Source: a virus
Taxonomy: Duplodnaviria > Caudoviricetes
Reading direction: 5' to 3' (one strand)
IMG/VR virus record: IMGVR_UViG_3300015607_000582
Location: 32,001 to 96,000 of that record
Length of the DNA: 64,000 nt
Shown here: positions 25,921 to 63,094 of the stretch, piece by piece
Layout of the letters: every line of letters begins with the position of its first letter
How positions within the stretch are numbered: the first letter of the stretch is position 1
Notes under the pieces: generated by a model
Told to the model about the DNA's origin: nothing
The model's input: the letters and a program-made list of their open reading frames with translations, nothing else
Database searches by the model: none
Program-made: the position numbers and the translations under genes

Positions 25921-26757
25921 TCACGACGCCTCCAGTGCTTCGAGGACGTTGTGCCATGTGCCGAAGCGCAGGCGGATAGTGGCGGGGACGGGCTCGCCCT
26001 CGGCGCGGTGCAGCTCGTACTGGTCGATGGAGGGCAGGCGGCCCTCGCAGTGCTCGACCTGCACGCGGCGGACGGCGGCGAGGATGTCCTCGTCGCTGTA
26101 CTTGGGGACGCCGAAGCCCTCGGGCGAGTCCTTGGTCGTCAGGCCCGCGAGCGACAGCGCCCGGTTCCACGAGCCGAACCGCTTGGTGATGGTCAACTCG
26201 CCGGGGCCACCGTGCTGCTTGCGCCACTGGACGTACCGCTTGACCGACAGGTGCTTGCCGTCGAGGTCCGCGTGTGCGGTGAGCAGGGTGGAGAGCAGGT
26301 CGTCGTCGGTGTGCCGCTGCGCCTTGCCCGCCCGGCGCATCGACTTGTGCCGACAGGCTTCGAGCCGGGAGATGTCGTCACGCAGTGCGTCGACCAAGGC
26401 CGGGTAGCTGATGCCCACGCGCTTGGCGATGGAGCGCATGTCTTCGCCCGCCCGGTACGCCTCCAGTGCGCCCTCGCGGATGCTCTCGATGTACTCCTGC
26501 CTGCGGGCGTTGCGGATGGACTGACCATGGCGCGCGGTCACGCCCTCCATGTTGAGGATCTGGCGCACGCGCTCACGGGTGACGCTGAACGCCGCCCCGG
26601 TCTCTTCGAGCGTGTGGCCGTCGAGGTAGTAGGCAACGACCTTCTGGCGGTGCTCGGCCGCCTGCTGCTGCCGTGCCGTGCGTGCCCGCTCGCGGGCTGC
26701 GTCGGTGCGCTCCTTCATGGCCTGCCGCTCCTGCATGCGCCTCTCTGCCTGCTTCAT
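25921..26757 (-). CDS. DNA-binding protein: sigma70 region 4-like HTH plus two HNH-associated repeats
   Basis: GHTLEETGAAFSVTRERVRQI; RFGSWNRALSLAGL; RFGTWHNVLEAL. Confidence 0.8.
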   Translation of the reverse strand: MKQAERRMQERQAMKERTDAARERARTARQQQAAEHRQKVVAYYLDGHTLEETGAAFSVTRERVRQILNMEGVTARHGQSIRNARRQEYIESIREGALEAYRAGEDMRSIAKRVGISYPALVDALRDDISRLEACRHKSMRRAGKAQRHTDDDLLSTLLTAHADLDGKHLSVKRYVQWRKQHGGPGELTITKRFGSWNRALSLAGLTTKDSPEGFGVPKYSDEDILAAVRRVQVEHCEGRLPSIDQYELHRAEGEPVPATIRLRFGTWHNVLEALEAS

Positions 26758-31483: not shown

Positions 31484-32581
31484 TCATGCGGTCACCTCGA
31501 CCTTCTTGGCGGCGAGCTGCTCGCGGATGACCTGCTCGATGATCGGGGCGACCGCGACCGGGCCGTCGGCCTTCTTGGCCTGCTCCTTGGCGATCTCGGC
31601 CACGAGCGGGGCGAGGGCGGTGTAGCCACCGTAGCTCCAGCGGCTGCGGCTGACGGCCCACTGCATGCTGTAGCAGCCGAAGTAGGTGCCCTTCTCGCCC
31701 GTGACCTTGCGCAGGATGCCAGCAGCAATCTGGCTCGGCATCTCTGCCTTGGGGTCAGCGACGTTGTAGAGATCAGCCCAGTCCACGATCAGGTGGCGAC
31801 CGCAGACGTGAGCGCCATGGCCGAGGTCGAACTTGCCGGGGTTGGTGCAGGAGCGAGCCGAGCACATGGGGTACTCGACCTTGGCCTTCACCTCGCCAGC
31901 GCGCACCTTGGTGGCCACGCCGTTCTTGACGAACGTGCCGCCGCCGTTGGTCTTGAGGTGGTTCTTGGCGTCGGTGATCGTGCGAGCGTGGCCGTCCCAG
32001 ACGAGGCGGTGATCCTTGGTCACGCGGCGCAGGTCGATGCTCGTGTAGCCGTCCTCAGTCTCGACGATGGCGAGGCGGCCCTCCAGCGTCAGCTCCGGGT
32101 ACTTGAGGCGCAGCTCGATGAGCGCGTCCTTCTCGCCCTGCTTGCGCTCGGCGTCGTTCCACTGCTTCTCGCGCTGGGCGTACAGCTCCTCGTTCATGGC
32201 GAACTCGTTGAGCAGGCGAGCGTTGAGGTCGGCGACGTAGTCGGCGAGGAACGTGAGGGCCTCGACCATCTCGCGAGCCTCGGAGGGGCTCATCTCGCGG
32301 ACGTTGATCTTCAGACCGAACTGGACAGCCTGCGTCGTGTCGTCCTTGCGCCAGTCGCGGCGGCGCTGCACCTTCTCGATCTGGAGGAACGAGTGCCAGC
32401 CTGCAGTGACCTCGTTCGGGCTGTCGGTGAACTGGCCGCCAGCGAAGGCGACGCGGAAGTCCGGGTCGCGCGGGTCGCTGTCGTCGGTCAGGACGAGGAT
32501 CTGCGCGCCGGTCGAGAGCGTGTGGACGGGCTCGTAGCCGTACTCGCCGATTGCCTGCTTGAGAGTGTAGGTGCTTGCCAT
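31484..32581 (-). CDS. Hypothetical early protein (365 aa)
   Basis: Strong codon bias; double AACGGAG leader. Confidence 0.75.
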   Translation of the reverse strand: MASTYTLKQAIGEYGYEPVHTLSTGAQILVLTDDSDPRDPDFRVAFAGGQFTDSPNEVTAGWHSFLQIEKVQRRRDWRKDDTTQAVQFGLKINVREMSPSEAREMVEALTFLADYVADLNARLLNEFAMNEELYAQREKQWNDAERKQGEKDALIELRLKYPELTLEGRLAIVETEDGYTSIDLRRVTKDHRLVWDGHARTITDAKNHLKTNGGGTFVKNGVATKVRAGEVKAKVEYPMCSARSCTNPGKFDLGHGAHVCGRHLIVDWADLYNVADPKAEMPSQIAAGILRKVTGEKGTYFGCYSMQWAVSRSRWSYGGYTALAPLVAEIAKEQAKKADGPVAVAPIIEQVIREQLAAKKVEVTA

Positions 32582-32637
32582 GGTGGTCATCTCCGTTGGT
32601 CGGTCTCCGTTGGGGCCGAAGCGCCCCTGCAGAGATC

Positions 32638-33644: not shown

Positions 33645-33711
33645 ACTCTACCCGATGTATCGAGAGATGCAACCCCCGTGTTGCGCAAAAGTTCGCTATT
33701 TGCGAGATTTT
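33645..33711 (-). promoter_or_regulatory. Class I promoter with upstream 25-bp element
   Basis: TTGCAT-N16-TAGAGT; plus-strand CAAAAGTTCGCTATTTGCGAGATTT repeated at 35576 and near-identical at 39808. Confidence 0.75.
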
Positions 33712-35496
33712 ATCGCTCTGGAGCGACCAGCTTGAGGTTGTAGTCCAGCACCCGCGCGGGCGTTTCCGTGCCGTCGAACAGAACGAGAACCTCGGGCCAA
33801 ACGCGGTCGTCGTCCCAGTCCAGAGCATGTCCGACGACGGTGCCGACGCGCCCGTTGTAGTAGGCATCACCAGCCTGCAGGACCTCACAGGCACCGACGA
33901 CCCGGTCATCGACGTGATGTCGGTAGTCGTAGTGCATGTCAGTCGCTCTCCTTGCGCTGCCAGATGCGCTCGAACTTGTCAGCAAGCCGGTCGACGGCCG
34001 ACAGGTCCGAGCCCGGAGCCGGGTCGTCGAGGATGGTGCGAAGGGTCGCCACGTCGGTGCGGTCGAGCCGCACTGTGACATCCCAGTCCGCCTGCTTCTT
34101 GGGCTGCGTGCTCATGTCGTCAGCTCCTTGGTCTTGTCGATGGTGTTGTGGATCTCGATCAGGGCTTCGACCCACCGGACGTCGTCGACGTAGCTGTCGC
34201 ATGCGGCGTCGAGAGCGAGCAGCCGAGTCGCCTTGGCCACAGCGCGGACGATAGCCGCGAGGTGCTCGCGCTTGTCGGGGTGATCGCCCGTCGAGCCGGA
34301 CATCACATCCGTCTCGATGGTGCGGGCCACCAGCTCCAGCGCGTTCTCCGCGTAGAGGTAGCACGAAGCCCAAGCTCCACTGCGGTCTCCGTCGTAAAGC
34401 ACGTCCACCCAGCGGGGCGTACCAGTGCCGCTCTCTGCGTACTCGACGTCGCGCCCGTTCGGTGCCGTTCGCATGTCGGCAGTCAGGAAGGTCTCGAAGT
34501 GCTCTGCGCTCATCGCGGTACCTCCAGCAGGTCGACGAGGTCGGCCAGCGAGATGACCACCATGGGGTCGCGCTGGAGGAGCGCCCACTTCTCGGCGTCG
34601 GCGTCGAAGTTCGCGCTCCTGCTCGCGTAGATCCTCCCGGCCTGCGCGCCGACATGCAGATCCATGTCGTACGCGACTGCCTTGAGCTTCGCGAGCAGCG
34701 CGCCGTTGCGCTCCACCCTTCCGCTCTCGCCAGCAGAGGCCGCCATCATGCGTTCACCTCCGTGATGCCCATCTTCTCGGCGAGGGCGACCGACCGCTCG
34801 CTGATGTCCATCATCTCGTTGACGTCGGCGTTCTCCTCGCCCCCGGCGTAGATCGCGGCCGACTGGGTGAAGAGCTGCACCAGCTCGTCGAGGTTGGCGA
34901 GCGTGTCGCTGGCCAGCCCGCTGATGAGGTGCTGGAGGTTGACGGCGTGCTCGCTGCGCTCCGCGATCTCCTCGGGCAGCTCGTCGAGCAGGGCGTCGGC
35001 TGCGCGGACGATGTCGTTGAGGCGGCGGATGGCGATGTCGTTGAGGTTGTTGGTGTCCATGGTGATCGTGCTCCGTTTCGGTGTGTCAGTGGATGGTGTT
35101 GGTGAAGTGTCAGTCGGCAGCGGGCACGACGTGCCAGCGGTTCTTGATCTTCGTCAGCGTGCCGACCAGCTCGCCGGGGAAGTCGTAGCCGTCGTTCCAG
35201 ACGCCCCGCTTGGCGCGGTAGACGTTCACGCCCTCGGAGGGCTTGTCGCCGACGAACACGAGCGGCAGCACATCCTCGAACTGGCCGGTCTCCTCGCACT
35301 TGACGACCTCGCCGGACTCCTCGTAAGCGTCCCACGCCATCGCGATCTGGCGATCCTGAGTCGCCTCGACGCGCGGGTCAATGTTCCAGTGGTTGCTCGG
35401 CTTGTGCGCGAAGGCGAAGGCATGCGCCTTCTGAACCTCACCGTCGAGGATGACGTTGTGGGTGCGCTTGCGGAACGTGTAGATGTAGATGCCCAT
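33710..35496 (-). other. Six small ORFs (33710-33937, 33939-34115, 34112-34513, 34510-34749, 34746-35060, 35110-35496)
   Basis: Gene chain below the class I promoter at 35535. Confidence 0.6.
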
Positions 35497-35534
35497 GGTC
35501 GGTGGTCTCCGTTCAGTGTGGCCTTCTGGTGTCC

Positions 35535-35600
35535 ACTCTACCCGATCCATCGGACAAAGCAACCCACCCGTTCCACAAAAGTTCGCTATTTGCGAGATTT
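35535..35600 (-). promoter_or_regulatory. Class I promoter with palindrome and upstream element
   Basis: TTGCTT-N16-TAGAGT; dyad CCGAT-CC-ATCGG. Confidence 0.75.
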
Positions 35601-36087
35601 ATGCGCGAACAGCCATGGGGAAATCCCATCCATGGATGGCCACAGGACGCCCCACAGCCCGCGCCACCAGCGGGTCGCGACACGAGTAGCCGGGCATGAG
35701 GTTGGTGACCTGCCTGCCGAGCATGAGGCGGCGGTTGACGATGATCGGAGCGAACAGGTTGATGGTCGCTCGCTTCGGCTCACGCGGCACGTTCACCACC
35801 GCAAGCACCTCGACGTCCTCTGCCCTGTCCAGCTCGATCTGCGCCAGCTCCTCGTCGGAGACCTTGACCTCGAAGCTCCAGTGGAACGCCCACGGGATGG
35901 TGACCGGCAACGCGACGCTCGGGGTGTCAGTCGACTGCAGCCACGCGAGCGGACTGTCAGTCCCACCGACGACCACCCAGCTCGTCTCCTCGACGAAGCC
36001 GGGGATCCCGTCGGGGAACTCGATGAAGGAGTCGTCCGGGGCCACGATGGCCCCGTGACGACCCTCCATGCGATGCCGGTCACCCAT
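35599..36087 (-). CDS. fliW: Flagellar assembly factor FliW (CsrA antagonist)
   Basis: IEFPDGIPGF, AWLQS, ALPVTIPWAF, TINLFAPIIVN...GRQV...Y..RDPL all match the FliW family pattern. Confidence 0.85.
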   Translation of the reverse strand: MGDRHRMEGRHGAIVAPDDSFIEFPDGIPGFVEETSWVVVGGTDSPLAWLQSTDTPSVALPVTIPWAFHWSFEVKVSDEELAQIELDRAEDVEVLAVVNVPREPKRATINLFAPIIVNRRLMLGRQVTNLMPGYSCRDPLVARAVGRPVAIHGWDFPMAVRA

Positions 36088-36091
36088 CGTG

Positions 36092-37978
36092 TCAGTCGTC
36101 CATGTCAGTCGGCGGGAACAGCTCGTGGTCAGTCGAGTCGCGGATCACGAACGAGGTGTCACACGCGCCGCCCGCGCAGTCGTCGACCAGCGAGCCGTCC
36201 TCGTACTCGATGTCGCGCCCGGCCACCGTCCACTCGGCGAGCACGTCAGCCATCTCGTCGACCGGGACGTGCTTCATGGGCTCGAAGCTGTCAGCCGTCT
36301 CGCGCGAGCCCTCGCGGTAGAACGTCGTGCCCTTGAGGTGCGGCAGGTACTCCAGCCAGAGGCCGCCCAGCTCCTCCACCGGGAAGTCCTTGGGGAGGTT
36401 GATCGTCTTCGACACGGCGCTGTCGACGTGCTTCTGGACGACGCGCTGCATCTCCATGTGGGCACGCGGCGTGACGTCGTACGCGCCCTCGACCAGCTCG
36501 GGGTGATCCGTGTACTCCTGCGACACCACGAGCGTCTCCGCGATGGTCTCGCGCTGCTTGGCGTCGACCGTACGACGACGGCGGATGTAGACCGGGCTGA
36601 ACACGGGCTCGACGCCGCCAGTGACGCCATGCACCATGGAGGTCGTGCCGGTCGGGGCGACCGTGAGCAGGCAGCAGTTGCGGATGCCGTGCTCCTTGAT
36701 CTTGTTCTTGATGCCACGCTTGAGCGTCTTGGCGAATCCCGACTGCAGGAAGCGCGGGTCGTAGAGGGGGAACGGCCCCTTCTCGATGGCGAGGCTCACC
36801 GAAGCGTCGTAGGCGGTGTTCTTGATGACCGACATGAGCTTGTCGACGAACTCCAGCGCCTCGTCGGACGAGTAGCGCATGCCGAGGTCGAGCAGCATCG
36901 AGTGCAGCCCCATGACGCCCAGACCGATGCGACGCTCCTCGTGCGCCACCTTCTCGTTCTCGGGCAGCGGGTAGTTGGCCACGTCGATGGTGTCGTCGAG
37001 GTAGCGCACGGCCAACCTGACGCTCTCGTCGAGCTTGTCCCAGTCCATCTTGCCGTCGACCACGAAGCGCGGCAGCACGAGCGCACCGAGGCAGCAGTTG
37101 GCGTACGGCGACAGGGGCTGCTCGCCGCACGGGTTCGTGGCCACGAGGTCGCGCACGTAGGCGATGTTGTTCATGCGCTGGACGAGGTGCCAGTTGAGCA
37201 GGCCGGGCTCGCCGTTCCGCCATGCGTTGCCGACGAGCCACTCCCAGAGGCGGGTGGCGTTGATCGTGCGCCCCTCGCGGTCGGGCAGGCCGCCGAAGCG
37301 CAGCGGGATCTCCTCGCCGTTGCGCACCATCTCGACGAACTTCTCCGTCGGCATGTCAGCCGGGATCATCACCGAGATGTTCGCGTTCGCGATCTCGCCC
37401 GTCTTGAGCTTCGCGTCGAGGAACTCCTCGACGTCCGGGTGGTCGATGTTCAGGCAGAACATGAGCGCGGCGCGGCGACCGCCGCCGTCCTTGATCTCCT
37501 CGCCGATGCCGTTGATGACGCGCATCAGCGACACCGCCCCGGTGGCCGTGCCGCCCATGCCGCCGATGGGGTAGCCGCGCGGGCGGACGGGGGAGAAGTT
37601 GAGCCCGACACCGCCGCCGCGAGCCGAGATGGTGGCGACGTCGCCCATCGCCTTGCCCCAGCCCTCGATGGTGTCCTCGGTCGGCGCGACGTAGCAGTTG
37701 CTCGTCTGCTGGATCTTGCGGCCAGCGCCGTACCAGTGGCGACCGCCGGGCATGAAGTAGCTGTCGGCCAGCTCGCGATGGAATCGGTGGAGGTAGACCT
37801 CGGCCTTGCCGTTGTGCTCGGCACGACTGGCGGAGTAGGCGAGGCGGTACGCGCCCTCGCTCCACGTCTCGACCGGGACGCCATCCTCGTCACGCTTGGC
37901 GTACCGCTCTCCGAAGATGGTCTGGCCCAGTCCCTTGGGCTCGAAGGCGGGTGCTGCAGGGGCTACTTCGGTCGTCAC
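36092..37978 (-). CDS. nrdJ: Adenosylcobalamin-dependent (class II) ribonucleotide reductase
   Basis: PGGR, SNCY, GGGVG, RRAALM, TNPCGEQPL, RRIGLGVMG, VAPTGT, SKTIN, C-terminal CAGGAC. No nrdB nearby. GTG start at 37978 with GAGGAG RBS. Confidence 0.9.
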   Translation of the reverse strand: MTTEVAPAAPAFEPKGLGQTIFGERYAKRDEDGVPVETWSEGAYRLAYSASRAEHNGKAEVYLHRFHRELADSYFMPGGRHWYGAGRKIQQTSNCYVAPTEDTIEGWGKAMGDVATISARGGGVGLNFSPVRPRGYPIGGMGGTATGAVSLMRVINGIGEEIKDGGGRRAALMFCLNIDHPDVEEFLDAKLKTGEIANANISVMIPADMPTEKFVEMVRNGEEIPLRFGGLPDREGRTINATRLWEWLVGNAWRNGEPGLLNWHLVQRMNNIAYVRDLVATNPCGEQPLSPYANCCLGALVLPRFVVDGKMDWDKLDESVRLAVRYLDDTIDVANYPLPENEKVAHEERRIGLGVMGLHSMLLDLGMRYSSDEALEFVDKLMSVIKNTAYDASVSLAIEKGPFPLYDPRFLQSGFAKTLKRGIKNKIKEHGIRNCCLLTVAPTGTTSMVHGVTGGVEPVFSPVYIRRRRTVDAKQRETIAETLVVSQEYTDHPELVEGAYDVTPRAHMEMQRVVQKHVDSAVSKTINLPKDFPVEELGGLWLEYLPHLKGTTFYREGSRETADSFEPMKHVPVDEMADVLAEWTVAGRDIEYEDGSLVDDCAGGACDTSFVIRDSTDHELFPPTDMDD

Positions 37979-38143
37979 TTGACTCTCTCCTCGTTGGTCA
38001 TTCGGGGGCATGTAAAGGGGCGAGCAGCCCACTGGCGAACCAGCGGGCGGCACCATTTAGGGGGCCGTGCTGCGAGGCAAAATCGGACACCTCGCGAAAG
38101 TCCCTGCTAGTGAGTTTCGCTGACGCCGACGGCCACGGAAGAG

Positions 38144-38169
38144 ATGCTACTGACCGCGTCGGACGAACC
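38144..38169 (-). promoter_or_regulatory. Class II promoter GGTTCGTCCG-N10-TAGCAT (nrdJ-fliW operon)
   Basis: Motif copy directly after a terminator. Confidence 0.8.
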
Positions 38170-38185
38170 TCTCGACTGACATGCA

Positions 38186-38217
38186 AAAGGGGCTGGCCGC
38201 GAGTGCGACCAGCCCCT
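38186..38217 (-). terminator. Rho-independent terminator
   Basis: AGGGGCTGGTCGC-ACTC-GCGGCCAGCCCCT followed by TTT. Confidence 0.75.
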
Positions 38218-38351
38218 GCCCCGGACGACCAACGTCGGGATGCAGTAGCCCGGCAGGCCATACGGCGAACGGAGGAACACCGACCTGCCGGGCGACGAGG
38301 GGAGACGCCGACCAAAGCATCTCTCACCCTCGCCCCGCGCTCTAGGCGCGG
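38186..38351 (-). ncRNA. Putative multi-hairpin small RNA with anti-RBS loops
   Basis: Four hairpins plus terminator; G-U pairs favour the minus strand; loops TTTGGTCG, TTCCTCCGTT and TTGGT. Confidence 0.6.
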
Positions 38352-38355
38352 AAAC

Positions 38356-39268
38356 TCACTTGGCGATGTACTGGAGCACGGCGAACATCGTCGCGCCGGT
38401 CAGCACGCCGATGCCGAAGAGGTTGACGCCAGCGGCAGCCAGCATCGACCAGCTCGGGCGCGTGACCTGCGTGACGACCAGCTCTCCGGGGAGGAGCGGG
38501 TTGTCGAGCCAGTCGCGCTTGTGCGCCTCGAACTCCTCCGGGGTCATCAGCCGCTTGGCCGTCTCGTCGACGTAGTCGAGCGGCGACTTGCCGGGCTCGG
38601 TCTCGCCGAGCGAGGCAGCGCCCACGCTCGTCTCCTCCGCGCCGTTGTCGTGCTGCGTCACGATGCGCGACGTCGGGTCGGGGCGACGGTGTGCGGGCTC
38701 GGTGGCGTTGACGCGCTCGACGTTCGCTGGCGCAGTCCACGCCCCGTTGTCGGCCGGTGCGATGACCGGCTCGGTGTCCTTGGTGGTGTCGTTGACGCTC
38801 TGGCTCATGAGACGCCTCCCTGCCGCACTCCCTGCGGCATCGCGATGTTCGTACCGGGCAGTGCGATGCCCGAGTTCTGGGCCCTCACCTGCGCGATCTG
38901 CTCGTACTCGTTCTGCATGGCGGGGCGGAACAGGGTGACCTCGTCGATCCTGACGCCCCACTGCTTCCCGGTGACCGCATCCGTGACCTGCACGAAGCGG
39001 ACGTCGCGATCCGACATGCGGTGCGCGAGGTCGTCGAACGAATCGCTGACCGCCATCAGCGACTGGCCGAGCTGGATCATGGAGATGTCGTTCATGCAGC
39101 GACCCCCATGACCTTGCCGGTGGCCACGTCGAGCGCCGTCCGGCGCATCCCGAGAGCGGCCACGGCCTGCAGGAATGCAGTGCGGTCGTCGTCGATGATG
39201 GCCTTGAGCAGCACGTCCACCGATTCGGTGTACGAGCCCACTGCTTCGATCAGTTCGTTCAGGTCCAT
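38356..39268 (-). other. Three ORFs (38356-38808 with C-terminal TM, 38805-39095, 39092-39268)
   Basis: Operon below the class II promoter at 39297, ending in the putative sRNA. Confidence 0.65.
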
Positions 39269-39765: not shown

Positions 39766-39833
39766 CACTCTACCCGATACATCGAGAAAAGCAACCCCAT
39801 TGTTCCGCAAAAGTGCGCTCTTTGCGAGATTTT
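39766..39833 (-). promoter_or_regulatory. Class I promoter with palindrome and upstream element
   Basis: TTGCTT-N16-TAGAGT; dyad CGAT-AC-ATCG. Confidence 0.75.
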
Positions 39834-43398: not shown

Positions 43399-43424
43399 AT
43401 GCTACAGGGGGCGTCGGACGAACC
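43399..43424 (-). promoter_or_regulatory. Class II promoter GGTTCGTCCG-N10-TAGCAT
   Basis: Follows the ligase stop; ATG 7 nt downstream. Confidence 0.8.
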
Positions 43425-49726: not shown

Positions 49727-52700
49727 CTACTGCTTGGGCCTGAAGGGGTCACCCGCCGCGCTCAGCGCAGCGATGTCGTCGTAGTTGACCCACCCGGTGG
49801 CGTAGTGCGGATGGAGCTTGCCGACATCGTTGAGCGGGATGTGGACGAGCACCATCTTCATGAACGGCTCGATGTCGACCACCTCGCCCCGGCGTCCGGG
49901 CTGCAGATCCGCATACTGGTCGCGCCACTCGGGTGCGCCATTCGGGCCGCTGTCGGCGTTGACGCGCTGCTGCAGCTCCGGGTGCCACCCAAGGTCGAGC
50001 GTCCGGTAGATGGGCAGACCGTCCTGCGACTCGCCGATGGGCTGCGCGCCCGGAATCGGGATCTTGCCCCCGCGCACCTCCAGCGTCACGGGCTTGCGGA
50101 GCTGGAAGATGGCCTTCTGGTTGCTCTTGCGCGACATGGCGTACCACGCCTCGACATCCTGCTCCGCCCCGAAGTGGAACTCGGAGCGACGCAGGGCCGT
50201 GACCGAGGCGAGCACCGCCACCTTGATGCGCTCGTAGCGGTACGGGTCGCCCGCCATCTTCCTGACCTGCGCCTCGTAGTGCTCATGCGCGAAGCAGACC
50301 GGCACCTCGTCCCCTCCGCCGAACCGCATGATCGTCTTGGCGGGCTCGCCGCAGTGACGACACACGGGGGCCGCGACCTTCGAGTACAGGTGCGCCGGGT
50401 GGGTCGGAGACCAAGCGATGGCGTTGGCTGGAGCGCCCGGCTCGTCCACCCGCCGAGCACTGGGCTCGATGAGCGGCTGCTGGGGGCGCGGCCCCTCGGG
50501 GTGCTCAGACAGGTTGTGCTCGGGCACCCACCGCTGGCCCTTGGACGTGTCGTCGTAGCGAACCTCGTACTGCCAGTACGAGCCGACCGCGTGGGCCGAG
50601 CCATTGTTCGTCGGATCGAGCCACCTGCGCTCGACGACCACTCCGGGCTCGCGCAGGTAGCCCACGTAGGTGTGCGCGCCGACCTCGAACTTGGGCGGCG
50701 TGGTCAGGTGCGACAGCGGCACCTGCATGTGCTTCACGCCCGGCAGGGTGGCCGCCGCAGGGGCGACTGCATTCCCGAGCGGATAGTCGGAGGCGGGTCG
50801 GCCATTGACGGCAGGGAAGTTGACCAAGAACGGGTTGTGCGGATCCTGCTCGACGCCCTCCAGCGGCTCCTCGCCCCACCTGCGATGTCGGACGTCAGTC
50901 AGGTTCGACTTGAGCAGCTCGAAGCCGTGCAGGATGCTGTTGTAGAATCGTTCGAGGTGCGTGCCGGTGTCGAACTGCTGGTTGTTCTGCTCGCGGGCAT
51001 GGGCACTGACACTCCGCACCGCACCGGCAGCGACGTTCAGCTCGCCGACGATGCGCGTGGCGATCCGGATCAGCTCCGGTCGAAGCGGATCGCCGCGCTC
51101 GTCGGTCGGGGACGTCAGGAAGCGACGCTGCAGATTGCGGGCCATCTCCTCAAGCGAGCCCGCCGTACCGTCGGGATTGCTGAAGCCCCAGTTGCGACCG
51201 CCGTGAGCCTCCATGTTGCAGCCCGCCGTGGCGAGAGCCGCGATGGCCTGAGACAGCTCGTCCTCGTCGTAGTTGACGCCCCAACTCGACTCCTCGGTGC
51301 CACTCAGTTCAAGGATGTGCTCGACCAGCTCCTCCTCGACCTTCTCCCAGTCGATCTCATCGACGTAGTGCGCTTCTTGGTAGTCGCGCGTCTCGCCGTC
51401 GTCGTCGTACTCGTACTCGCTGCTGGCGGTGAAGCGGTCGAAGTCGTCCTTGAAGTCGATGGCGTCGTCGAGGTCGGTGATGCTGAACGACTCGCCGTCG
51501 TGCCAGTAGTCGCCGTAGTGCTCGCGCCGCTCCTCCAGCCGCCGCTCCTCGTCGTAGCCGAACTCGTGATGGTCGTAGGCGGCGCTGTCGTTCTCCTCTG
51601 ATCGGTCGACGGTGATGTCGTACTTGGCGGCGACGTCGTTGTAGAAGCGCACCATGATGTCGGAGACAGGGTTCTTGCCGGAGCGTTCGACGCTGCGCTC
51701 GTCGAGCGGCTGGTTGTCGTTGGCGCGCACCTCCAGCGGCACCCACTCGTTCGCGTAGGGAAAGCCGCCACGCCTCCCGCGCAGACCGATGAACAGCGAC
51801 GCGAGCGGTCGACCCGACTGACTCCGCAGGCCGACGGCGATCTGGTTGCCGTCGTAGATCGGCGCACGGTACTGCTCGCCGTATGAGCTGTCAGAATCGG
51901 CGTAGCAGTGGCTGAGCATCTCACCATGGCGCTCCATGGAGTCGCTGTCGTTCGGGTCGAGGACGACCGCGTAGTTGCCCTTCTTGTCCTCCCAGACCTT
52001 CTTGTCCTCGTCGTCCCAGTAGATCGAGTTCGTCTCGGGGTCGAGGCCGATGCTCTCCAGCTCCCCCACCCACGAGCGCAAGCTGGAGAAGTCATCGCCC
52101 TTGGGGTCGAAGCCGCCTCCGCCAACCTCGCGGTCGCCGTACATCCGCTGCCACTCGATGAAGGGGATCGCGTTGTCGAGCGTCGAGAGGTCGTAGCTGT
52201 TGACGGGGTTGAGGCGCTTGGCCTTCACCTCCTCGGCGATCCACGGGTAGATGGTCGCTGCCTCGGGATCCAGACCCTCGATGAGCTGGGAGATGACCTG
52301 CAAGTTCGTCAGCCCGGCACCCTCGCCGTCGTACTCGCTGCCGCGCTTGACCATCTTCGGCGGCTTCGACCACCCCTCGACACGGAGCTGCGCGATCCAG
52401 TAGGCGTCGCCGATGATCTCCCTGATCTCCTCGGTCAGGGGAACCTTGCGCTCCTGTCCGTCGCCGAGATCGAGGAACAGCTCATCCGAGAGCGGGATCG
52501 CGCGCAGGCTGTGGCGGACTTTGCTGACACGCCAGAGGTTGCCGGGGGAGATGGTGAAGTGGGCGTCGTTGTCCCAGCCCTCATCGGAGTCTGGCTGGAC
52601 GCCCGCCTCGCGCATGATCGCATCGAAGAGCTTGACGTACTCGCCGCCCCATCGACGCCAGATGAACTCGGGCGACGTGTTGCGCACGACGTCGCCCTCC

Positions 52701-52951
52701 ATGATCCGACGCGGGTCGAACGGCTCCTTGGCCCACTTCTGGGGCTCAAGCTGCTTGAGCAGCGACTCGCGCTTGCGCTCCGCGTACTCGGGGTCGACCG
52801 CCGCCGTGCGACGAAGACCAGACGCCAGCGAGCGCATGACGTAGTCGTGAACCGGGTTGGTTCGATGCACCTCGCCGCAGTGGGGGCACGGGCGCTCGTC
52901 GTCGCCACCGATCCAGTTGGCGAGCGTGCCTTCGCTCCATCCGTCGATCAT
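49727..52951 (-). CDS. Large multidomain (polyvalent-like) protein with PcfJ-like domain
   Basis: 1074 aa; HGEMLSHCY...LRSQSGRP...EVRANDNQ, acidic tract, SH3-like and Zn-binding segments. Confidence 0.75.
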   Translation of the reverse strand: MIDGWSEGTLANWIGGDDERPCPHCGEVHRTNPVHDYVMRSLASGLRRTAAVDPEYAERKRESLLKQLEPQKWAKEPFDPRRIMEGDVVRNTSPEFIWRRWGGEYVKLFDAIMREAGVQPDSDEGWDNDAHFTISPGNLWRVSKVRHSLRAIPLSDELFLDLGDGQERKVPLTEEIREIIGDAYWIAQLRVEGWSKPPKMVKRGSEYDGEGAGLTNLQVISQLIEGLDPEAATIYPWIAEEVKAKRLNPVNSYDLSTLDNAIPFIEWQRMYGDREVGGGGFDPKGDDFSSLRSWVGELESIGLDPETNSIYWDDEDKKVWEDKKGNYAVVLDPNDSDSMERHGEMLSHCYADSDSSYGEQYRAPIYDGNQIAVGLRSQSGRPLASLFIGLRGRRGGFPYANEWVPLEVRANDNQPLDERSVERSGKNPVSDIMVRFYNDVAAKYDITVDRSEENDSAAYDHHEFGYDEERRLEERREHYGDYWHDGESFSITDLDDAIDFKDDFDRFTASSEYEYDDDGETRDYQEAHYVDEIDWEKVEEELVEHILELSGTEESSWGVNYDEDELSQAIAALATAGCNMEAHGGRNWGFSNPDGTAGSLEEMARNLQRRFLTSPTDERGDPLRPELIRIATRIVGELNVAAGAVRSVSAHAREQNNQQFDTGTHLERFYNSILHGFELLKSNLTDVRHRRWGEEPLEGVEQDPHNPFLVNFPAVNGRPASDYPLGNAVAPAAATLPGVKHMQVPLSHLTTPPKFEVGAHTYVGYLREPGVVVERRWLDPTNNGSAHAVGSYWQYEVRYDDTSKGQRWVPEHNLSEHPEGPRPQQPLIEPSARRVDEPGAPANAIAWSPTHPAHLYSKVAAPVCRHCGEPAKTIMRFGGGDEVPVCFAHEHYEAQVRKMAGDPYRYERIKVAVLASVTALRRSEFHFGAEQDVEAWYAMSRKSNQKAIFQLRKPVTLEVRGGKIPIPGAQPIGESQDGLPIYRTLDLGWHPELQQRVNADSGPNGAPEWRDQYADLQPGRRGEVVDIEPFMKMVLVHIPLNDVGKLHPHYATGWVNYDDIAALSAAGDPFRPKQ

Positions 52952-55900
52952 CGCCAGTTCTCCTCGAAGTTGCTCATGTCAGTCGACCGCTCAGCGATCA
53001 GGTTGTCAGGGCCGACCCATCCCTCGTGACCGTCATCAAACTGGACGTGGTAGACGGTGCCACCCTCGAAGAGGCCGTCGGGCTCATGCTTGACCTCGAT
53101 CACCCGGCCCGGCTTGTCGATGACCTCCGGCCAGTCGGGGATCTTGGCACGGGCATCTGGATGCGTGACGAGGCGGTAGATGACGCGATCTCCGCCCTTG
53201 AAGCGGTAGTCCGTCGCGCGCAGCTCCTCGGGCACCTCGTGGATGCGGCGGTTGTACTCGGCTCGATGAAGTTCGGTCCACGCCTGCCGCTCGTCCTCGT
53301 CCATCTCGCCATCAAGGTAGCGGCGGTTCTGCTCGGCCATGAAATCATCGACTCTGCCGTCGGCACGCCAGTAGTCTTCGTACTCGTCGCCCACAGACGA
53401 GTACGTGCCGGGGAACTGGGTCGGGTTGCCGGGGTTCTCCCAGCCGGGCGGGTTCGCGCCGGGGATCGACGTCGGGTTGGTCGGCGGCACCGGCTGACCG
53501 CCGGGCGGCGCGGTGATGTCGAACAGCTTGAACTGGCCGGGGCCGGGGCCCTTCTTGCGCTGCGGCGGGGTGAACGGGTTCGCCGGGCGCGGCGCGATGG
53601 GGCCGGGCGGCGGGCCCGCAGGCTGCGCTGGCATCTGCTGCTCGATCTGCTCGCGCATGTCCGGCAGCGAGATGATCGGCGGCTTGTCGTCGGGGCTGAA
53701 CGAGCGCGGGAGCTTGTCGAGATCGAGGCCGAGGTCGGCCCGCTGCTCGTCCATGCCGGGAATCTGGCCCTTGTTGCGCTCGAACAGCTCGTCCTCCGAG
53801 AACGGGGTGACGCGCTGGCCCGGCGCGGGCTTGAAGGCGGGGTCGAGCGCCTTCAGCTCCTCGATGCCTTCGAGCGGATGCGACTTGCTCGCCCAGTACA
53901 GCGCCCGGACGTGAGAGCACGGGCGGCCCTCCAGCCGCTTCCACTTGCGAGTGCGCCCCCACGCATACTGCGACCACTTGCAACCGCAGTGCCACATGTC
54001 GATGCTGGACGACCTCGGGTCAGTCGACTCGATCTCGACCTCGTAGTCGCCATGGTCGCCGATGACATGGCCCTGCGTGAGGATGCCGGGCTTGGTGGGG
54101 TGAATGCCGTGGTAGTTGACGGTGACCTTGCCATCGCGAATCAGGCGCATGGACTTCTGCATGGTGTTCTCGGCCACCACGAGGCGCATCCCGAGCCCGA
54201 GCCCCGCGACCTTCGCGATGTGCTCCCCGGTCAGCTTCTCGATTGCGGGATGGAGCCCCGCGTTGGCGATGGCCTTGTACGCCACGTTGGCGTCGCTGAA
54301 GTCTCCGAGCCCGGCGCGCTGTGCCTCCTGCCGCGACTTGTGGAGCTGGTGCCAGAACTCGCGTGCCGCATCGGGCGCGTACATGAGCAGCAGCTTCATC
54401 TTGTCGACGACCATCTCGGCGTAGGCGCGCAGCGAGGGGCGCACCTCCTTCGCCATCGACTTGTCCGGCGGCACGATCCACTCGCGCTTGTCGAGGTCGT
54501 AGCCCGAGCGCAGGCCGGGCTTGTACAGGTCCTCGCGGCGGATGTCAGCCGGAACCACGTACGCCTGCAGCGGGATGTCAGTTCCCGGCAGCTTGGTGCC
54601 GTCGACGCTGCCGACCATCACCTTGACGAGGTCGGCCCGAACCCAGTCGGGCATCCGGGCGGCGTCGACGAAGAGGCTGACGTCGAAGTCGGACGGGCCG
54701 GTGTCATCGTACTGGTACGTCGTCAGCGAGCCGGTCAGGACGAGCGACAGGTACTGGTCGGGGTCAGGCCATCCGGCGGCGACCATGGCGTCGGTGATGG
54801 TCTTGCGGACGAAGTCGATGATCTCGGGCTTGACGTCAGGGGTCGCCGACGACGGGTTGTCGAAGACGTGCGAGCTGAGCTGGTCGCGCACCGGGTCGAG
54901 GATGTTCGCAGTGCGCCGCTGGCGCAGGTGCGGGTAGTCGTCAAGGATCGCCTCGTCAATCGCATCGAGGTCAATACCTCGCTGAAGCGCATCCTTGACG
55001 AAATCCTCGTGCGTCCAGAGCCACGACTTGTCTGGCACGACGCCCGATACGCTGCCGACATCCTCGGCTTCGTTCTGGTACCAATACCCAGTGTCGTCCC
55101 ACCCCTCGTTGATGGCGTGGTTCGCGTATGCGTCGCCCGAACCTCCGTGCCAGTCCCCCATGTCCCCGCCGTTGAACGGATACCCCATCTCGTGAGCGTC
55201 CGCCATATCGTCTTCTCGATGGGGAGAGACACGAACGGGGATGAAGGTCGGCTTGGTGTGCCAGTCCTTGGGCCCCTTGTGCCATGTGTCCGCAGTCTCT
55301 GCGCGCAGCGCATCGAGCGGCTCGTGCGGCTGCCACTTGAGGCTGCTGGCATTGCCGCCAGCGAGATTCGCAGTCATCGCTTCGTACGCCGCCTTCTGCG
55401 TGCCGAAGTGGATGACGCCGTCCCCCATCTCCCCGGCCGGGGTCGCGTGCCAAAGCGTGTCGGGGTGACGCTCGAACTCCCACTTGGTCATCTCATGGGG
55501 CTCGCGCTCATCATGGCGAAGGCTGCCCGAGCCGGGCTCTACACGATGCTCCCAGTCCTCCCAGAGCGCGTGCGCCTCGGCGATCATGCGCTCGGTCTCG
55601 TGGTACGGGTCGATCAGGTCGCCCGTGGCGAGTGACACGAGTACGCGGTCGCGGTCGACCGACGCGAGATGGCGCTCGGCGGTCTCGAAGCCGATCATCG
55701 CCACGCGCACGAGCGCGCCCGGCCCGCAGTGACGGGTGACGACCTCGCGCACGGTGTCGGGCTCGACGCCTTCGACGGCGATGTGGAGGTCGCCGGGCTG
55801 CATGGGCCGTCGCTGGACGACGTCGCGGACGGTCTCGCCTGCGACGTAGACGGTGCCGTACTCCAGCAGCTCCTGCGCGGGCTCCCAGAGCGGATCGCAG

Positions 55901-56226
55901 GCGAGGAGCTTGATGCACTTGGCCGCGATGTTCGACGACGCGAGGCGGTACCGCTCCTCGCCGACCAGCCGGTAGATGTGCTTGATCTCCAGCTCCGGGT
56001 GCATGGTGTACCAGAGCCGCGTCAGGTGGAACACCGTCCACGGCATGTCCGTGTCCGTGCGGATCTGCAGATTGCCCTTCGGGTCGTAGACGCCTTCGAC
56101 GATGCCGCCGGGGTTGAACTTACCGGAGATGTCTGCGTGCCGCTCGCCGGGCTGGCCGACGTAGACGCGGTCGCCCTCGATGTCGTAGATCATCGGGATG
56201 GGGCCATGCAGCTCGACGTCAGGCAT
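52948..56226 (-). CDS. Large multidomain protein: degenerate CCA/PAP-like head, ART-like domain, Pol-beta nucleotidyltransferase, SWIM finger, SH3-like domain
   Basis: VAGETVRD..DLHIAV; LWHAT..IHFGT..Y.NEAED; LTGSL...SDFDV; CGCKW...PCSH. Confidence 0.75.
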   Translation of the reverse strand: MPDVELHGPIPMIYDIEGDRVYVGQPGERHADISGKFNPGGIVEGVYDPKGNLQIRTDTDMPWTVFHLTRLWYTMHPELEIKHIYRLVGEERYRLASSNIAAKCIKLLACDPLWEPAQELLEYGTVYVAGETVRDVVQRRPMQPGDLHIAVEGVEPDTVREVVTRHCGPGALVRVAMIGFETAERHLASVDRDRVLVSLATGDLIDPYHETERMIAEAHALWEDWEHRVEPGSGSLRHDEREPHEMTKWEFERHPDTLWHATPAGEMGDGVIHFGTQKAAYEAMTANLAGGNASSLKWQPHEPLDALRAETADTWHKGPKDWHTKPTFIPVRVSPHREDDMADAHEMGYPFNGGDMGDWHGGSGDAYANHAINEGWDDTGYWYQNEAEDVGSVSGVVPDKSWLWTHEDFVKDALQRGIDLDAIDEAILDDYPHLRQRRTANILDPVRDQLSSHVFDNPSSATPDVKPEIIDFVRKTITDAMVAAGWPDPDQYLSLVLTGSLTTYQYDDTGPSDFDVSLFVDAARMPDWVRADLVKVMVGSVDGTKLPGTDIPLQAYVVPADIRREDLYKPGLRSGYDLDKREWIVPPDKSMAKEVRPSLRAYAEMVVDKMKLLLMYAPDAAREFWHQLHKSRQEAQRAGLGDFSDANVAYKAIANAGLHPAIEKLTGEHIAKVAGLGLGMRLVVAENTMQKSMRLIRDGKVTVNYHGIHPTKPGILTQGHVIGDHGDYEVEIESTDPRSSSIDMWHCGCKWSQYAWGRTRKWKRLEGRPCSHVRALYWASKSHPLEGIEELKALDPAFKPAPGQRVTPFSEDELFERNKGQIPGMDEQRADLGLDLDKLPRSFSPDDKPPIISLPDMREQIEQQMPAQPAGPPPGPIAPRPANPFTPPQRKKGPGPGQFKLFDITAPPGGQPVPPTNPTSIPGANPPGWENPGNPTQFPGTYSSVGDEYEDYWRADGRVDDFMAEQNRRYLDGEMDEDERQAWTELHRAEYNRRIHEVPEELRATDYRFKGGDRVIYRLVTHPDARAKIPDWPEVIDKPGRVIEVKHEPDGLFEGGTVYHVQFDDGHEGWVGPDNLIAERSTDMSNFEENWR

Positions 56227-59158
56227 GGGGCTCTCCGTTCAGTCCGATGTGCGATGGCGGGAACAGCTCGGGCGGGCGCGGGTCGCCCCACACGTCGCGC
56301 TCAGGGCCGACGTAGTCGCCAACGTGGACTGCCGGTCGGCCGATCTTGTCGCGGAACTCCGCCATCGGCCCCATCCTGCGCACGACGGTGACGGGAACGT
56401 GCGTGTGGCCGAGGCTCTCTGCCATCTCAAGGCGGTGGTGGCCCTCGCCGAGGTAGGCATGGCCGTCGGCAGCACTCCACTCCAGCATGAGCGGCTGGTT
56501 GATGCCGTGCTCGGCGATGTGGTCGCGGAGGCGCGCGAAGCTGACATCGTCGTTGATCCTGTCGCCTCCCGTCCGGTCGAACTCCGCGAACCGCCTGACT
56601 TCGGAGATCGGCATCATCTCGGCGAACTGCATCTGCCATCCCGGCTTCTCGCTGTACTGCTGCCACTTCGGGGTCTCGCCACGGTCGATGGACGACCAGT
56701 CGGGCTCCTGCGCCCATGGCGCGGCCGTCTTCGGCCGTCGGATGCGCTCCGGAAGCTGGCTCCCGTACTGCTCGCGCCAGTCGCCATGATCCCAGTCGGT
56801 GACGTAGCTCGGGTGGATGGGGCCACGGTGCGTCATGCCCGCATCGTGGGGCACACGCGGCTCGTCGTGCCAATCCTCCTCGGGAGGGTAGGGGTCGGCG
56901 TAGTTGCGCAGGCTCTCGTGGAGATCCTCGGGCAGGTGCGGCCAGAGCCGAATCGCCTCGGGGATGCGAACCCGATCCTTGCTCGATCCGGGCAGCTCCT
57001 CCGGCGGCACCTCGCCGTGCTGTGTGACCGCGTCCCAGATGTCATGCGTGGGGTCGTACCACTCATCCCATCCGTGCGTGCCGCGCTCCAGCTCGTGAGG
57101 CTCGTAGTCGTCCTCCTCCTGCGCGACCTGCTTCCACTCGTCGCGCTCGTCCTCTGGGCGGCGCGTGTGGTGGAGGATGTCCGCGAAGTGCTCGGGGTCG
57201 CCCTGAATGCGGCTGGGGTCGAGGCCCTGCATCTTGACGATGACGGGGTCGTTGAGCTTGTTGTTGATCGCCATGGTGCCCGCCCACTGCGCCGCCGTCT
57301 CGTAGTGCGGGAACACGTAGACGTGATCGGTCAGGCGCGGCACCCACTCGACCGTGTGCGAGGGATCCTGCTGGAACCTCGCGGGCAGGATGCCGCTCTG
57401 CTGGATGACCGGCAGGTTGGAGCGATCCGTGACGTGGTACCACTCGTCGTTGAACCGACCCATGCCGACTGCAGTCCAGCCCGCGACGACGCCGAGCTGA
57501 TCCTGCTTGCGCTGGTAGTCGACGAAGTTGTTGGGGAAGGTGGCGTCCATGTTGACGTAGGGGTCGACCTCGCTCGGCAGCGGGTCGGCTCGCGTGTGCT
57601 CGGCGACAGTGTGCTCGCGCCATGCCCCGTAGTCGGGGAAGTGCTCGCCGCACTCGGAGCACTCGTACGCACCGCCGTTGGGCTCGCCCTCGTCGGGGCC
57701 GTCGATGCTCCATCCGGGCGGCGGCATCTGGTCGAACTGGTCGGTGCCCGCCCACTCCTTGTTGCGCCAGTCCTTGACGCCGGGGTTGTTGGGGCCGACG
57801 CCGAAGCCTGCGGCAGTCGTCTGCGACCACGCGACGGCGTCCGGGGACATGTGGCCCCAGTCGTGCTCGACGGCCCCGAAGACGCGACGTGCCTCTTCGA
57901 GCAGGGCGGAGGCGACGCCCGTCCGACGGTACTCGGGCTCAACCTGCACTCCGCCGATGACCCACTGCCCCTGATCGCCCTTCGCGACCGACAGGATGCC
58001 CACGGCCGTCTGCCCCGAGTAGGCGATGAAGTGGTTGAGGGTCTGCTTGATGGCGAAGGACGGCGGCAGCGGCATGGCCGTACGAACGCGACCCTCGACC
58101 TGTCGCATGCGGAAGTTGTAGAGCACCTCGTTGAACGAGCTGTCGATCAGCCACGCGAGCGGGTCTTCGACCTCGGTGACCGTGTAGTCGACCCCGTTGA
58201 GGCGGTAGACGCGGCCGACCTGCGGCACGCCCTCGCTGTCTGGCGTCACCTGCGCGGCGGGGGCGGCCGGGTTGATCGGCTGCACGCCCTCGCCACGGCA
58301 GTTGCAGTCGCCGCGCTCGCACTTGCGGAGCTGCGCCTTGGCGTTCCGGTCGCTACGGTAGTCGCTCGGCGTCGCGGCGACGTTGACCTTGTGCCCATTC
58401 TGCACGAAGCGGAAGTGGCCGCCCGGCAGCGGTACCAGCTCCCACCCGGCCTTCGTGGCCTCGGGGAATCGCTGGAGGATCTTGCGGTTGGCTACGCGCT
58501 CTCGCGGAAGGCGGCGCTCTTGACCTGAGCCTCGCGCAGGCTCTCCGGCGTCGGCTGCCAGCCATCCGTCACGCCGCACGACGGGCAGGGGAAGGTCTCG
58601 CCCTCCCGGTGCGCCACCCGATGCCCGCAGCTCTGGCACGGACGCCTCCAATGACCGCTCGCCGTCTGCACGACGGTCGGGTCGCCCTTCTCGAACTTCT
58701 GCATGGATGGCTTCATGGTCACTCCTCAGTGTGCCCGTTTTCTCCAGATGAGGCAACCCCTGCTCGTCGATCAGCCCCTTGTAGTTCCATCCGTAGGTCT
58801 TGGCGGCCTTCTTGAGCGCCTTCTCGACGATGTCCAGCTTCATGTTGCTCGACAGCAGCTCGAACTCGGCGTCCCAGCGGTCGAACAGGTGCAGGATCCC
58901 CTTGGCGTGGGGCCGTGAGAAGTGCGAATGGCTCGCCATCTCCAGCATGAGCTGGTGATCTGCGGTCGGGTGGATCAACACCTGATCCTTGCCCACGACG
59001 ACCCAGTTGTAGGGCGTCGGCTCGTGGCTGGGCTCGACCCGCGTGTAGTCAGGGCGAGGAGCGAGCGGCTGAACCTTGGGGCGGGCGTCGTTGGCCGCCT
59101 GCGGCTCCTCGGCGGGGTAGGCATCGCTACCGGAGGTGTCAGAGGTTCGGTGCGTCAT
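56219..59158 (-). CDS. Large multidomain protein: HicA-like, GNAT, C2H2 finger, ART-like, ParB-like
   Basis: GGHFRF...TPSD.R; VQVEPEYRRTGVASAL; CSEC...H....H; YHVT...LPVIQQSGI.P; GINQPL...EGHHRL. Continuity across 58490-58730 is uncertain. Confidence 0.7.
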   Translation of the reverse strand: MTHRTSDTSGSDAYPAEEPQAANDARPKVQPLAPRPDYTRVEPSHEPTPYNWVVVGKDQVLIHPTADHQLMLEMASHSHFSRPHAKGILHLFDRWDAEFELLSSNMKLDIVEKALKKAAKTYGWNYKGLIDEQGLPHLEKTGTLRSDHEAIHAEVREGRPDRRADGERSLEASVPELRASGGAPGGRDLPLPVVRRDGWLAADAGEPARGSGQERRLPRERVANRKILQRFPEATKAGWELVPLPGGHFRFVQNGHKVNVAATPSDYRSDRNAKAQLRKCERGDCNCRGEGVQPINPAAPAAQVTPDSEGVPQVGRVYRLNGVDYTVTEVEDPLAWLIDSSFNEVLYNFRMRQVEGRVRTAMPLPPSFAIKQTLNHFIAYSGQTAVGILSVAKGDQGQWVIGGVQVEPEYRRTGVASALLEEARRVFGAVEHDWGHMSPDAVAWSQTTAAGFGVGPNNPGVKDWRNKEWAGTDQFDQMPPPGWSIDGPDEGEPNGGAYECSECGEHFPDYGAWREHTVAEHTRADPLPSEVDPYVNMDATFPNNFVDYQRKQDQLGVVAGWTAVGMGRFNDEWYHVTDRSNLPVIQQSGILPARFQQDPSHTVEWVPRLTDHVYVFPHYETAAQWAGTMAINNKLNDPVIVKMQGLDPSRIQGDPEHFADILHHTRRPEDERDEWKQVAQEEDDYEPHELERGTHGWDEWYDPTHDIWDAVTQHGEVPPEELPGSSKDRVRIPEAIRLWPHLPEDLHESLRNYADPYPPEEDWHDEPRVPHDAGMTHRGPIHPSYVTDWDHGDWREQYGSQLPERIRRPKTAAPWAQEPDWSSIDRGETPKWQQYSEKPGWQMQFAEMMPISEVRRFAEFDRTGGDRINDDVSFARLRDHIAEHGINQPLMLEWSAADGHAYLGEGHHRLEMAESLGHTHVPVTVVRRMGPMAEFRDKIGRPAVHVGDYVGPERDVWGDPRPPELFPPSHIGLNGEPHA
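58492..58716 (-). CDS. Nested alternative-frame Zn-ribbon protein (74 aa)
   Basis: GAGGAG RBS, strong GC3 bias, CQSC...CPSC. Confidence 0.65.
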   Translation of the reverse strand: MKPSMQKFEKGDPTVVQTASGHWRRPCQSCGHRVAHREGETFPCPSCGVTDGWQPTPESLREAQVKSAAFRESA

Positions 59159-63068: not shown

Positions 63069-63094
63069 ATCATAGAGACGGCGTCGGACGAACC
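63069..63094 (-). promoter_or_regulatory. Class II promoter GGTTCGTCCG-N10-TATGAT
   Basis: Directly after a TGA stop. Confidence 0.8.

Follow-up and report, generated by a model that had tools for sequence, protein, structure and literature searches.

To our knowledge, few bacterial regulators of translation are both global and transcript-specific; CsrA is one of them, and we know of no widespread protein antagonist of CsrA other than FliW. Flagellin is the certain CsrA-repressed target in the known systems, and in Bacillus subtilis translational coupling sets a 1:1 ratio of FliW to CsrA. The closest described system is the Hag-FliW-CsrA switch of B. subtilis and Geobacillus (5DMB). In B. subtilis FliW, eight substitutions that abolish function have been reported, distributed over seven positions (Oshiro & Kearns, bioRxiv 10.1101/2020.07.02.184341). 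Of these positions, P26, F58, N108, A111 and Q124 surround CsrA N55, whereas A122 and K123 are close to the core of CsrA. The K123E and A122V proteins bind CsrA without antagonising it, so that binding is separable from antagonism in B. subtilis (10.1101/2020.07.02.184341). The CsrA- and flagellin-binding surfaces of FliW overlap (HDX regions 3-11, 22-28 and 95-115; PMC6070490), and the FliW-flagellin contact is described by HDX and SAXS rather than by a solved interface (PMC6070490). Among mobile elements, phage-borne CsrA/Rsm homologues occur in 30 of 2517 phage genomes (PMC7366521), and the TldR-fliC_P prophages of Enterobacter control host flagellin transcription (10.1101/2025.07.22.666180).

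Here we describe a fliW gene carried by a large phage. Its product shares Pfam family, fold and antagonism positions with the FliW of the B. subtilis/Geobacillus switch. Unlike B. subtilis fliW, the phage gene lies outside a flagellar operon, lacks csrA, hag and fliS as companions and is coupled to nrdJ. With a probable phage-specific promoter and no csrA, it would therefore lie outside the translational coupling that fixes FliW:CsrA stoichiometry in B. subtilis. The phages and plasmids that carry CsrA/Rsm are likewise mobile elements with a Csr component that presumably reprograms host translation, but they bring the repressor itself, whereas the present phage brings the antagonist and no csrA (PMC7366521). 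The TldR-fliC_P prophages also represent phage-encoded interference with host flagellin expression. Theirs is transcriptional and RNA-guided, and they are temperate and carry their own flagellin, whereas here we find a putative post-transcriptional protein antagonist, no flagellin and no integrase. The portion of the full-text literature on FliW and phages that was available to us contains no report of a phage-borne fliW, and a phage-encoded FliW seems not to have been described before. We favour, at a probability of roughly 55%, the reading that this is a functional FliW that antagonises host CsrA, which myoviruses obtained from flagellated Actinomycetota of the Thermoleophilia/Gaiellales type and have kept since.

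The phage genome and its fliW gene

The window that we analysed comprises 64,000 nucleotides, bases 32001-96000 of a 142,928-bp IMG/VR virus record with a CheckV completeness of 96%. The record encodes a tail sheath, portal, large terminase, head protease, DNA polymerase and helicase, as well as an NAD-dependent ligase and a class II ribonucleotide reductase (RNR). Nearly all genes lie on one strand, and GC3 is uniform. The portal shares ~40% identity with the portals of actinophage myoviruses of the cluster-C type (Mycobacterium phages Myrna and Alice, Rhodococcus phage E3 and Gordonia phages). The record is a large soil-type myovirus, presumably of high-GC Gram-positive bacteria. A megablast of 12 kb around fliW against phage records returned no match. 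As neither a tyrosine integrase nor a serine recombinase was found in the record, the phage is probably virulent. No tRNAs were found, and Rfam gave no match within the window. Three consecutive ORFs of ~1000 aa (49727-59158, minus strand) have hardly any family match, and only one of them (56219-59158, minus strand) shows pieces of recognizable families (GNAT, C2H2 and ParB-like).

The fliW coding sequence occupies positions 35599-36069 on the minus strand and encodes 156 aa plus a stop codon. An upstream in-frame ATG at 36087 extends the ORF to 162 aa (35599-36087, minus strand), but this is the longest reading only. Homologues support the ATG at 36069: a related fliW on metagenome contig L009 begins with identical codons, and the gene as called publicly also encodes 156 aa. 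The protein matches the FliW family of Pfam (PF02623) over the entire profile (positions 1-122 of 122) with 104.4 bits against a cut-off of 25 (E 4.4e-30; 105 bits in the genome-wide search). Eight FliW equivalog models of NCBIfam (NF009793 and others) also match and none reaches its cut-off, the best scoring 107.6 against 130. No PHROG family matches. By these scores, the phage protein is a divergent member of FliW and an equivalog of none of the modelled NCBIfam subgroups.

Structure prediction agreed with the family assignment. An AlphaFold2 model built on 25 homologues reached a mean pLDDT of 92.8 and a pTM of 0.87. The six best Foldseek matches of this model in the PDB are FliW chains (5DMB_A, 2AJ7_A/B, 5DMD_A/B and 5JAK; TM 0.79-0.89, E ~1e-12), and the first match that is not a FliW has an E value of 0.26. 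Judged by profile and predicted fold together, the ORF encodes a genuine, intact, full-length FliW, and the preliminary description, which had recognized a full-length FliW pattern by eye, was right on this point.

The record contains exactly one FliW. The typical genomic setting of FliW, with csrA and late flagellar genes, was not encountered in the 142.9 kb; the gene is flanked by nrdJ and by genes that belong to no family. The preliminary description had seen no csrA or flagellar genes within the window, and the same holds for the whole 142,928-bp record as regards csrA, flagellin and fliS. GC content across fliW ranges from 0.61 to 0.68 without a break, and its GC3 of 0.85 resembles that of neighbouring genes. 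We rejected an assembly chimera or contamination with host DNA on the basis of this uniform composition, phage promoter motifs on both sides of the gene and equal synteny in two independent assemblies, described below.

The nrdJ-fliW transcription unit

The placement of fliW directly after nrdJ, reported earlier, holds. The upstream gene of the operon, nrdJ (36092-38056, minus strand), encodes a class II, B12-dependent ribonucleotide reductase. Its stop codon occupies 36092-36094, and 22 nt separate it from the start of fliW on the same strand. The product matches the Pfam family Ribonuc_red_lgC with 343.8 bits, and the RNR-II insertion domain scores below threshold (21 bits against 27). The true start of nrdJ may lie downstream of 38056.

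We read promoters in this region from conserved phage-specific motifs rather than from a strict sigma-70 consensus scan, which called none between 34500 and 39000. The motif GGTTCGTCCG-N10-TANNNT occurs 13 times in the window, always on the coding strand, against an expectation of 0.03 (further examples lie at 43399-43424 and 63069-63094), and probably represents a phage-specific promoter class. The copy nearest upstream of nrdJ-fliW (38144-38169, minus strand, with TAGCAT as its TANNNT element) is the likely promoter of the operon. We infer both its function and the timing of nrdJ-fliW expression from the sequence. The window also encodes a 278-aa protein (25921-26757, minus strand) with a sigma-70 region-4/HTH domain and homing-endonuclease-associated repeats, possibly a transcription factor for one phage-specific promoter class.

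Between the upstream gene (38356-38961) and this promoter motif lies a structured intergenic RNA of 176 nt (38180-38355, minus strand). It folds into several long hairpins and ends in a GC hairpin followed by a U-run, which resembles a terminator. Its minimum free energy is -109.5 kcal/mol (z -6.84), and none of 200 shuffled sequences folded as well. It belongs to no Rfam family. The preliminary description had suggested that a putative sRNA and FliW could form one circuit; adjacency is all that joins this RNA to fliW.

A second set of signals follows fliW. A conserved AT-rich upstream element (35575-35594, minus strand) begins 5 nt past the fliW stop codon and has three copies in the window (at most 3 mismatches) where none is expected; similar elements lie at 33685-33704 and 39807-39826. 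Next comes the sigma-70-like promoter of the following transcription unit (35535-35562, minus strand), composed of TTGCTT, a 16-nt spacer with a CCGAT..ATCGG dyad, and TAGAGT, after which comes the AACGGAG leader of the next gene. Because this element and promoter serve the next gene, fliW would be the last gene of the nrdJ-fliW unit. The longest reading of the ORF downstream (35110-35562, minus strand), which matches no Pfam or PHROG family, starts inside the promoter. Translation probably begins at the ATG at 35494, 12 nt past the AACGGAG at 35507-35513.

Phage relatives and bacterial kin

We searched 1.84 billion representative proteins with HMMER and obtained 2620 FliWs, of which only two had E < 1e-30; a word-based protein search returned one FliW with 65% identity. 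Two short metagenome contigs carry related genes. The FliW of L009 (63% GC) is 65% identical to that of the window, and the FliW of L007 (53% GC) is 45-47% identical. In both contigs the C-terminus of NrdJ directly precedes fliW (79% identity to the NrdJ of the window in L009, 41% in L007). Past the fliW stop codon both keep the upstream element, the -35 box, the CCGAT..ATCGG dyad and the -10 box (positions 790-870 of L009 and 690-770 of L007). From this shared NrdJ and promoter cassette we conclude that L009 and L007 are fragments of related phages and that the arrangement predates their divergence. Compared with the fliW of the window, dN/dS is 0.49 for L009 and 0.12 for L007, the latter with saturated dS. 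By these ratios, phage fliW is kept under purifying selection.

Other searches for phage relatives gave none. In a tblastn search of 50,697 phage records we found no genuine phage FliW. The only two matches, L126 (MT836588.1) and L127 (MT836129.1), are human faecal virome entries labelled "UNVERIFIED: Bacteriophage sp." that carry flgK-flgL-fliW-csrA and are thus bacterial loci. Two scans of IMG/VR, whose reach was limited by the search pattern, also found no relative. The FliW P0004 (L008) was rejected as a phage relative: a flagellin-like gene lies upstream and glyoxalase and AbiEi-like genes lie downstream, as in Gaiellales MAGs.

The nearest bacterial FliWs are 35-45% identical and come from Thermoleophilia, Gaiellales, Solirubrobacteraceae and unclassified Actinomycetota MAGs. 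Because the scan of genome contigs used a six-sequence pattern that favours the Actinomycetota clade, we re-tested the placement with an unbiased sample from the HMMER search. A careful maximum-likelihood (ML) tree was built from one-third of the single-domain HMMER representatives with lengths of 125-200 aa. Eight other proteins, 260-326 aa long, contain two tandem FliW stretches (P0005, P0007, P0008, P0014, P0015, P0033, P0085 and P0135). In the careful tree the three phage FliWs form one clade (support 100/98), which is sister to a clade of Thermoleophilia/Gaiellales-type Actinomycetota MAGs (98/90). A larger quick tree agrees and gives the phage clade a long stem of 1.45 changes per site. 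The phage clade is not nested within the sampled bacteria. The preliminary description had proposed a phylogeny against host fliW as a check. By these trees, the gene either derives from the FliW of the Thermoleophilia/Gaiellales-type group or has a recent ancestor in common with it. Its long stem indicates that the phage clade is fast-evolving since its split from bacterial kin.

The phage protein and the chromosomal Thermoleophilia/Gaiellales-type FliWs (for example those of L010, L012, L011 and L014) have a PW(A/V)F motif in common and share part of a C-terminal extension past the Pfam domain (P-V, 142-143). The phage clade differs from them in its long stem, in a C-terminal GW(D/K)FP motif of its own and in 20 positions where the bacterial sister clade shows at least 85% conservation and all three phage FliWs are changed. 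Non-conservative changes among these 20 include F5H/R, K35G/A, V40P, D49T and R99K/S/Y, and the specificity of phage FliW is possibly shifted.

Genomic settings differ as well. Unlike phage fliW, the genes of the Thermoleophilia/Gaiellales type either end flgN-flgK-flgL-fliW operons or precede csrA. In five members of one Gaiellales/Thermoleophilia sub-clade (L012, L046, L050, L010 and L008), fliW ends the flgN-flgK-flgL series without csrA after it. In the Gaiellales MAG G003, fliW and csrA are located on separate contigs, and fliW and csrA are adjacent in three other Actinomycetota MAGs (L011, L014 and L017). The CsrAs of the candidate host lineages are of the canonical FliW-type: their C-terminus is long, and E55-N56 hardly varies. 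Where B. subtilis CsrA has D41, they carry no acidic residue. From this kinship, the host would be a flagellated, Thermoleophilia/Gaiellales-like actinobacterium with CsrA.

Proposed CsrA antagonism and its alternatives

We compared the phage protein with the FliW of Geobacillus thermodenitrificans in 5DMB by a gap-free HMMER alignment (~30% identity over 133 residues). It places P26, F58, N108, A111, A122, K123 and Q124 on P23, L54, N104, A107, G118, R119 and Q120 of the phage protein. Five of the seven antagonism positions are identical, Geobacillus itself having G at 122, and the other two carry the conservative changes F to L and K to R. The F to L change is also seen in the bacterial sister clade, and K to R keeps the charge. 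Of the CsrA-binding surface, whose loss would have counted against the earlier reading, the residues needed for antagonism are retained. G21, P59, P108, N112 and Q120 are invariant in the 25 FliW homologues. The equivalent of K123 is R, R and M in the three phage FliWs (M in L007) and is variable in bacterial FliWs too. In B. subtilis, K123 forms a salt bridge with CsrA D41, which has no acidic counterpart in the candidate-host CsrAs. The kept residues include every one genetically tied to CsrA antagonism. They are also the most conserved of the family, and the surfaces for CsrA and for flagellin overlap, so that their retention does not tell one kind of binding from the other.

We also co-folded the phage FliW with two chains of a Gaiellales-type CsrA as a stand-in for the CsrA of the presumed host, one of the checks that had been suggested. 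The complex scored 0.55 and the best control 0.00, with at least 69% contact agreement among runs and a partner pLDDT of at least 79. Of 80 solved complexes, 58 attained the mark that counts as a pass, as did 2 of 110 mismatched pairs; passes at or below 0.60 comprise only 7 of the 80 solved complexes but both of the passing mismatches. Since the like complex 5DMB has already been solved, the pass may be memory, and it speaks for likeness to that complex rather than for binding. The result lies above its controls and lends weak support to a binding of host CsrA by phage FliW.

The preliminary description had further proposed that the phage may neutralise CsrA to free its own mRNAs, on the grounds that its recurrent ribosome-binding sequence AACGGAG contains a CsrA-like site. 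The observations behind this idea are accurate. The window has 16 copies of AACGGAG where 7.0 are expected, a number equalled in 1 of 100 shuffles. Thirteen of them lie on the coding strand, and genome-wide 12 of the 15 copies on that strand precede a called start by 6-11 nt. One leader carries two copies 14 nt apart (32591-32611, minus strand; copies at 32591-32597 and 32605-32611), the second of which is the Shine-Dalgarno sequence of the ATG at 32581. The conclusion drawn from them fared less well. In the 20 nt before the start of 143 called genes, GGA is present in 103 (72%) and GGAG in 73 (51%), whereas AACGGAG precedes no more than 12 genes, almost all of which belong to a single block of duplicated early promoter-leader cassettes. 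AACGGAG is an ordinary, recurrent Shine-Dalgarno variant and, because GGA is part of any such sequence, its presence in a leader is uninformative on CsrA. The predicted fold of the two-copy leader has its 5' end paired with the first copy and places neither GGA in a hairpin loop; with a z of -1.76, it is no better than shuffled sequences. The leader of fliW has no AACGGAG motif, and the Rfam search gave no RNA resembling a CsrA sponge. A circuit in which AACGGAG-leader phage mRNAs are CsrA targets freed by FliW, perhaps with the structured RNA, is accordingly improbable in our view. What stands of the earlier CsrA-antagonist reading is an intact FliW, the kept antagonism residues and bacterial kin with fliW-csrA; the argument from the phage's own leaders does not stand.

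The remaining alternatives accept the protein as FliW and differ in its target or its use. It may hold or titrate flagellin monomers and so alter flagellar assembly, motility or receptor supply, with the effect on CsrA secondary or lost. The regions through which cellular FliW contacts the N-terminal part of flagellin are kept in the phage protein (PMC6070490), the TldR-fliC_P prophages illustrate that phages remodel host flagellin expression (10.1101/2025.07.22.666180), and the nearest bacterial FliWs directly follow flgK-flgL, with fliW and csrA on different contigs in G003. Weighing on the other side are the retained antagonism residues and the FliS-flagellin-FliW trimer of B. subtilis, which can still engage the export-gate protein FlhA, so that assembly would not obviously be blocked (PMC6070490); moreover, we see no sign that this phage uses flagella. 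We regard a flagellin-directed role as rather unlikely, and equally so its possible service in superinfection exclusion or in cutting the loss of progeny on debris. The separability of binding from antagonism in B. subtilis (K123E, A122V), the fast evolution of the phage clade and the varying K123 equivalent would also suit a competitive FliW that occupies CsrA or flagellin without releasing RNA, blocks host FliW, leaves CsrA active and shuts down flagellin synthesis, which would spare resources. Yet the protein of the window keeps G118-R119-Q120, like functional FliWs, the varying position varies in bacteria too and nothing speaks positively for such a protein, which makes it very improbable. 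Least credible of all is a passenger gene, recently captured without a role in infection, or an assembly chimera. Phages do capture host genes at random, and the gene matches no PHROG family and occurs in no other of the phage records searched. Against this, the same neighbours flank fliW in three phages whose FliWs are 45-65% identical, whose contigs span 53-66% GC and whose dN/dS is below 1. The protein shares no more than 35-45% identity with any bacterial FliW, and the gene lies without a compositional break between phage promoter motifs.

We thus return to a functional phage FliW that antagonises host CsrA, and envisage the following course. The gene would be an old acquisition from a flagellated host among Actinomycetota of the Thermoleophilia/Gaiellales type, and a lineage of large, probably virulent myoviruses would have kept it as the second gene of nrdJ-fliW under a phage-specific promoter. 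Phage FliW would be made in excess during infection, outside the 1:1 stoichiometry of host FliW and CsrA. It would bind the extended C-terminus of the host CsrA dimer, allosterically releasing CsrA from mRNAs and thereby locking the flagellin-FliW-CsrA partner switch in a "CsrA off" state. Phage FliW would probably bind flagellin too, thereby releasing host FliW and driving the switch in the same direction. The net outcome, whose advantage to a lytic phage is not obvious, would be de-repression of host CsrA targets, namely flagellin and possibly other mRNAs. More tentatively, actinobacterial myoviruses might use the captured FliW as a dedicated anti-CsrA protein, independent of flagellar assembly, perhaps unmasking their own GGA-containing ribosome-binding sites. 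It would then represent a phage protein inhibitor of a global translational repressor, co-expressed with nucleotide-metabolism genes, and would give the phage command of post-transcriptional control in its host.

If the proposed role is true, phages target the Csr network by way of its inhibitor, and the protein would provide a natural "uncoupled" FliW for the study of the partner switch. The gene itself would be a clue to host range, pointing to a flagellated host with CsrA. It would also give a first functional handle on the phage-host biology of the almost uncultured Thermoleophilia/Gaiellales bacteria of soil.
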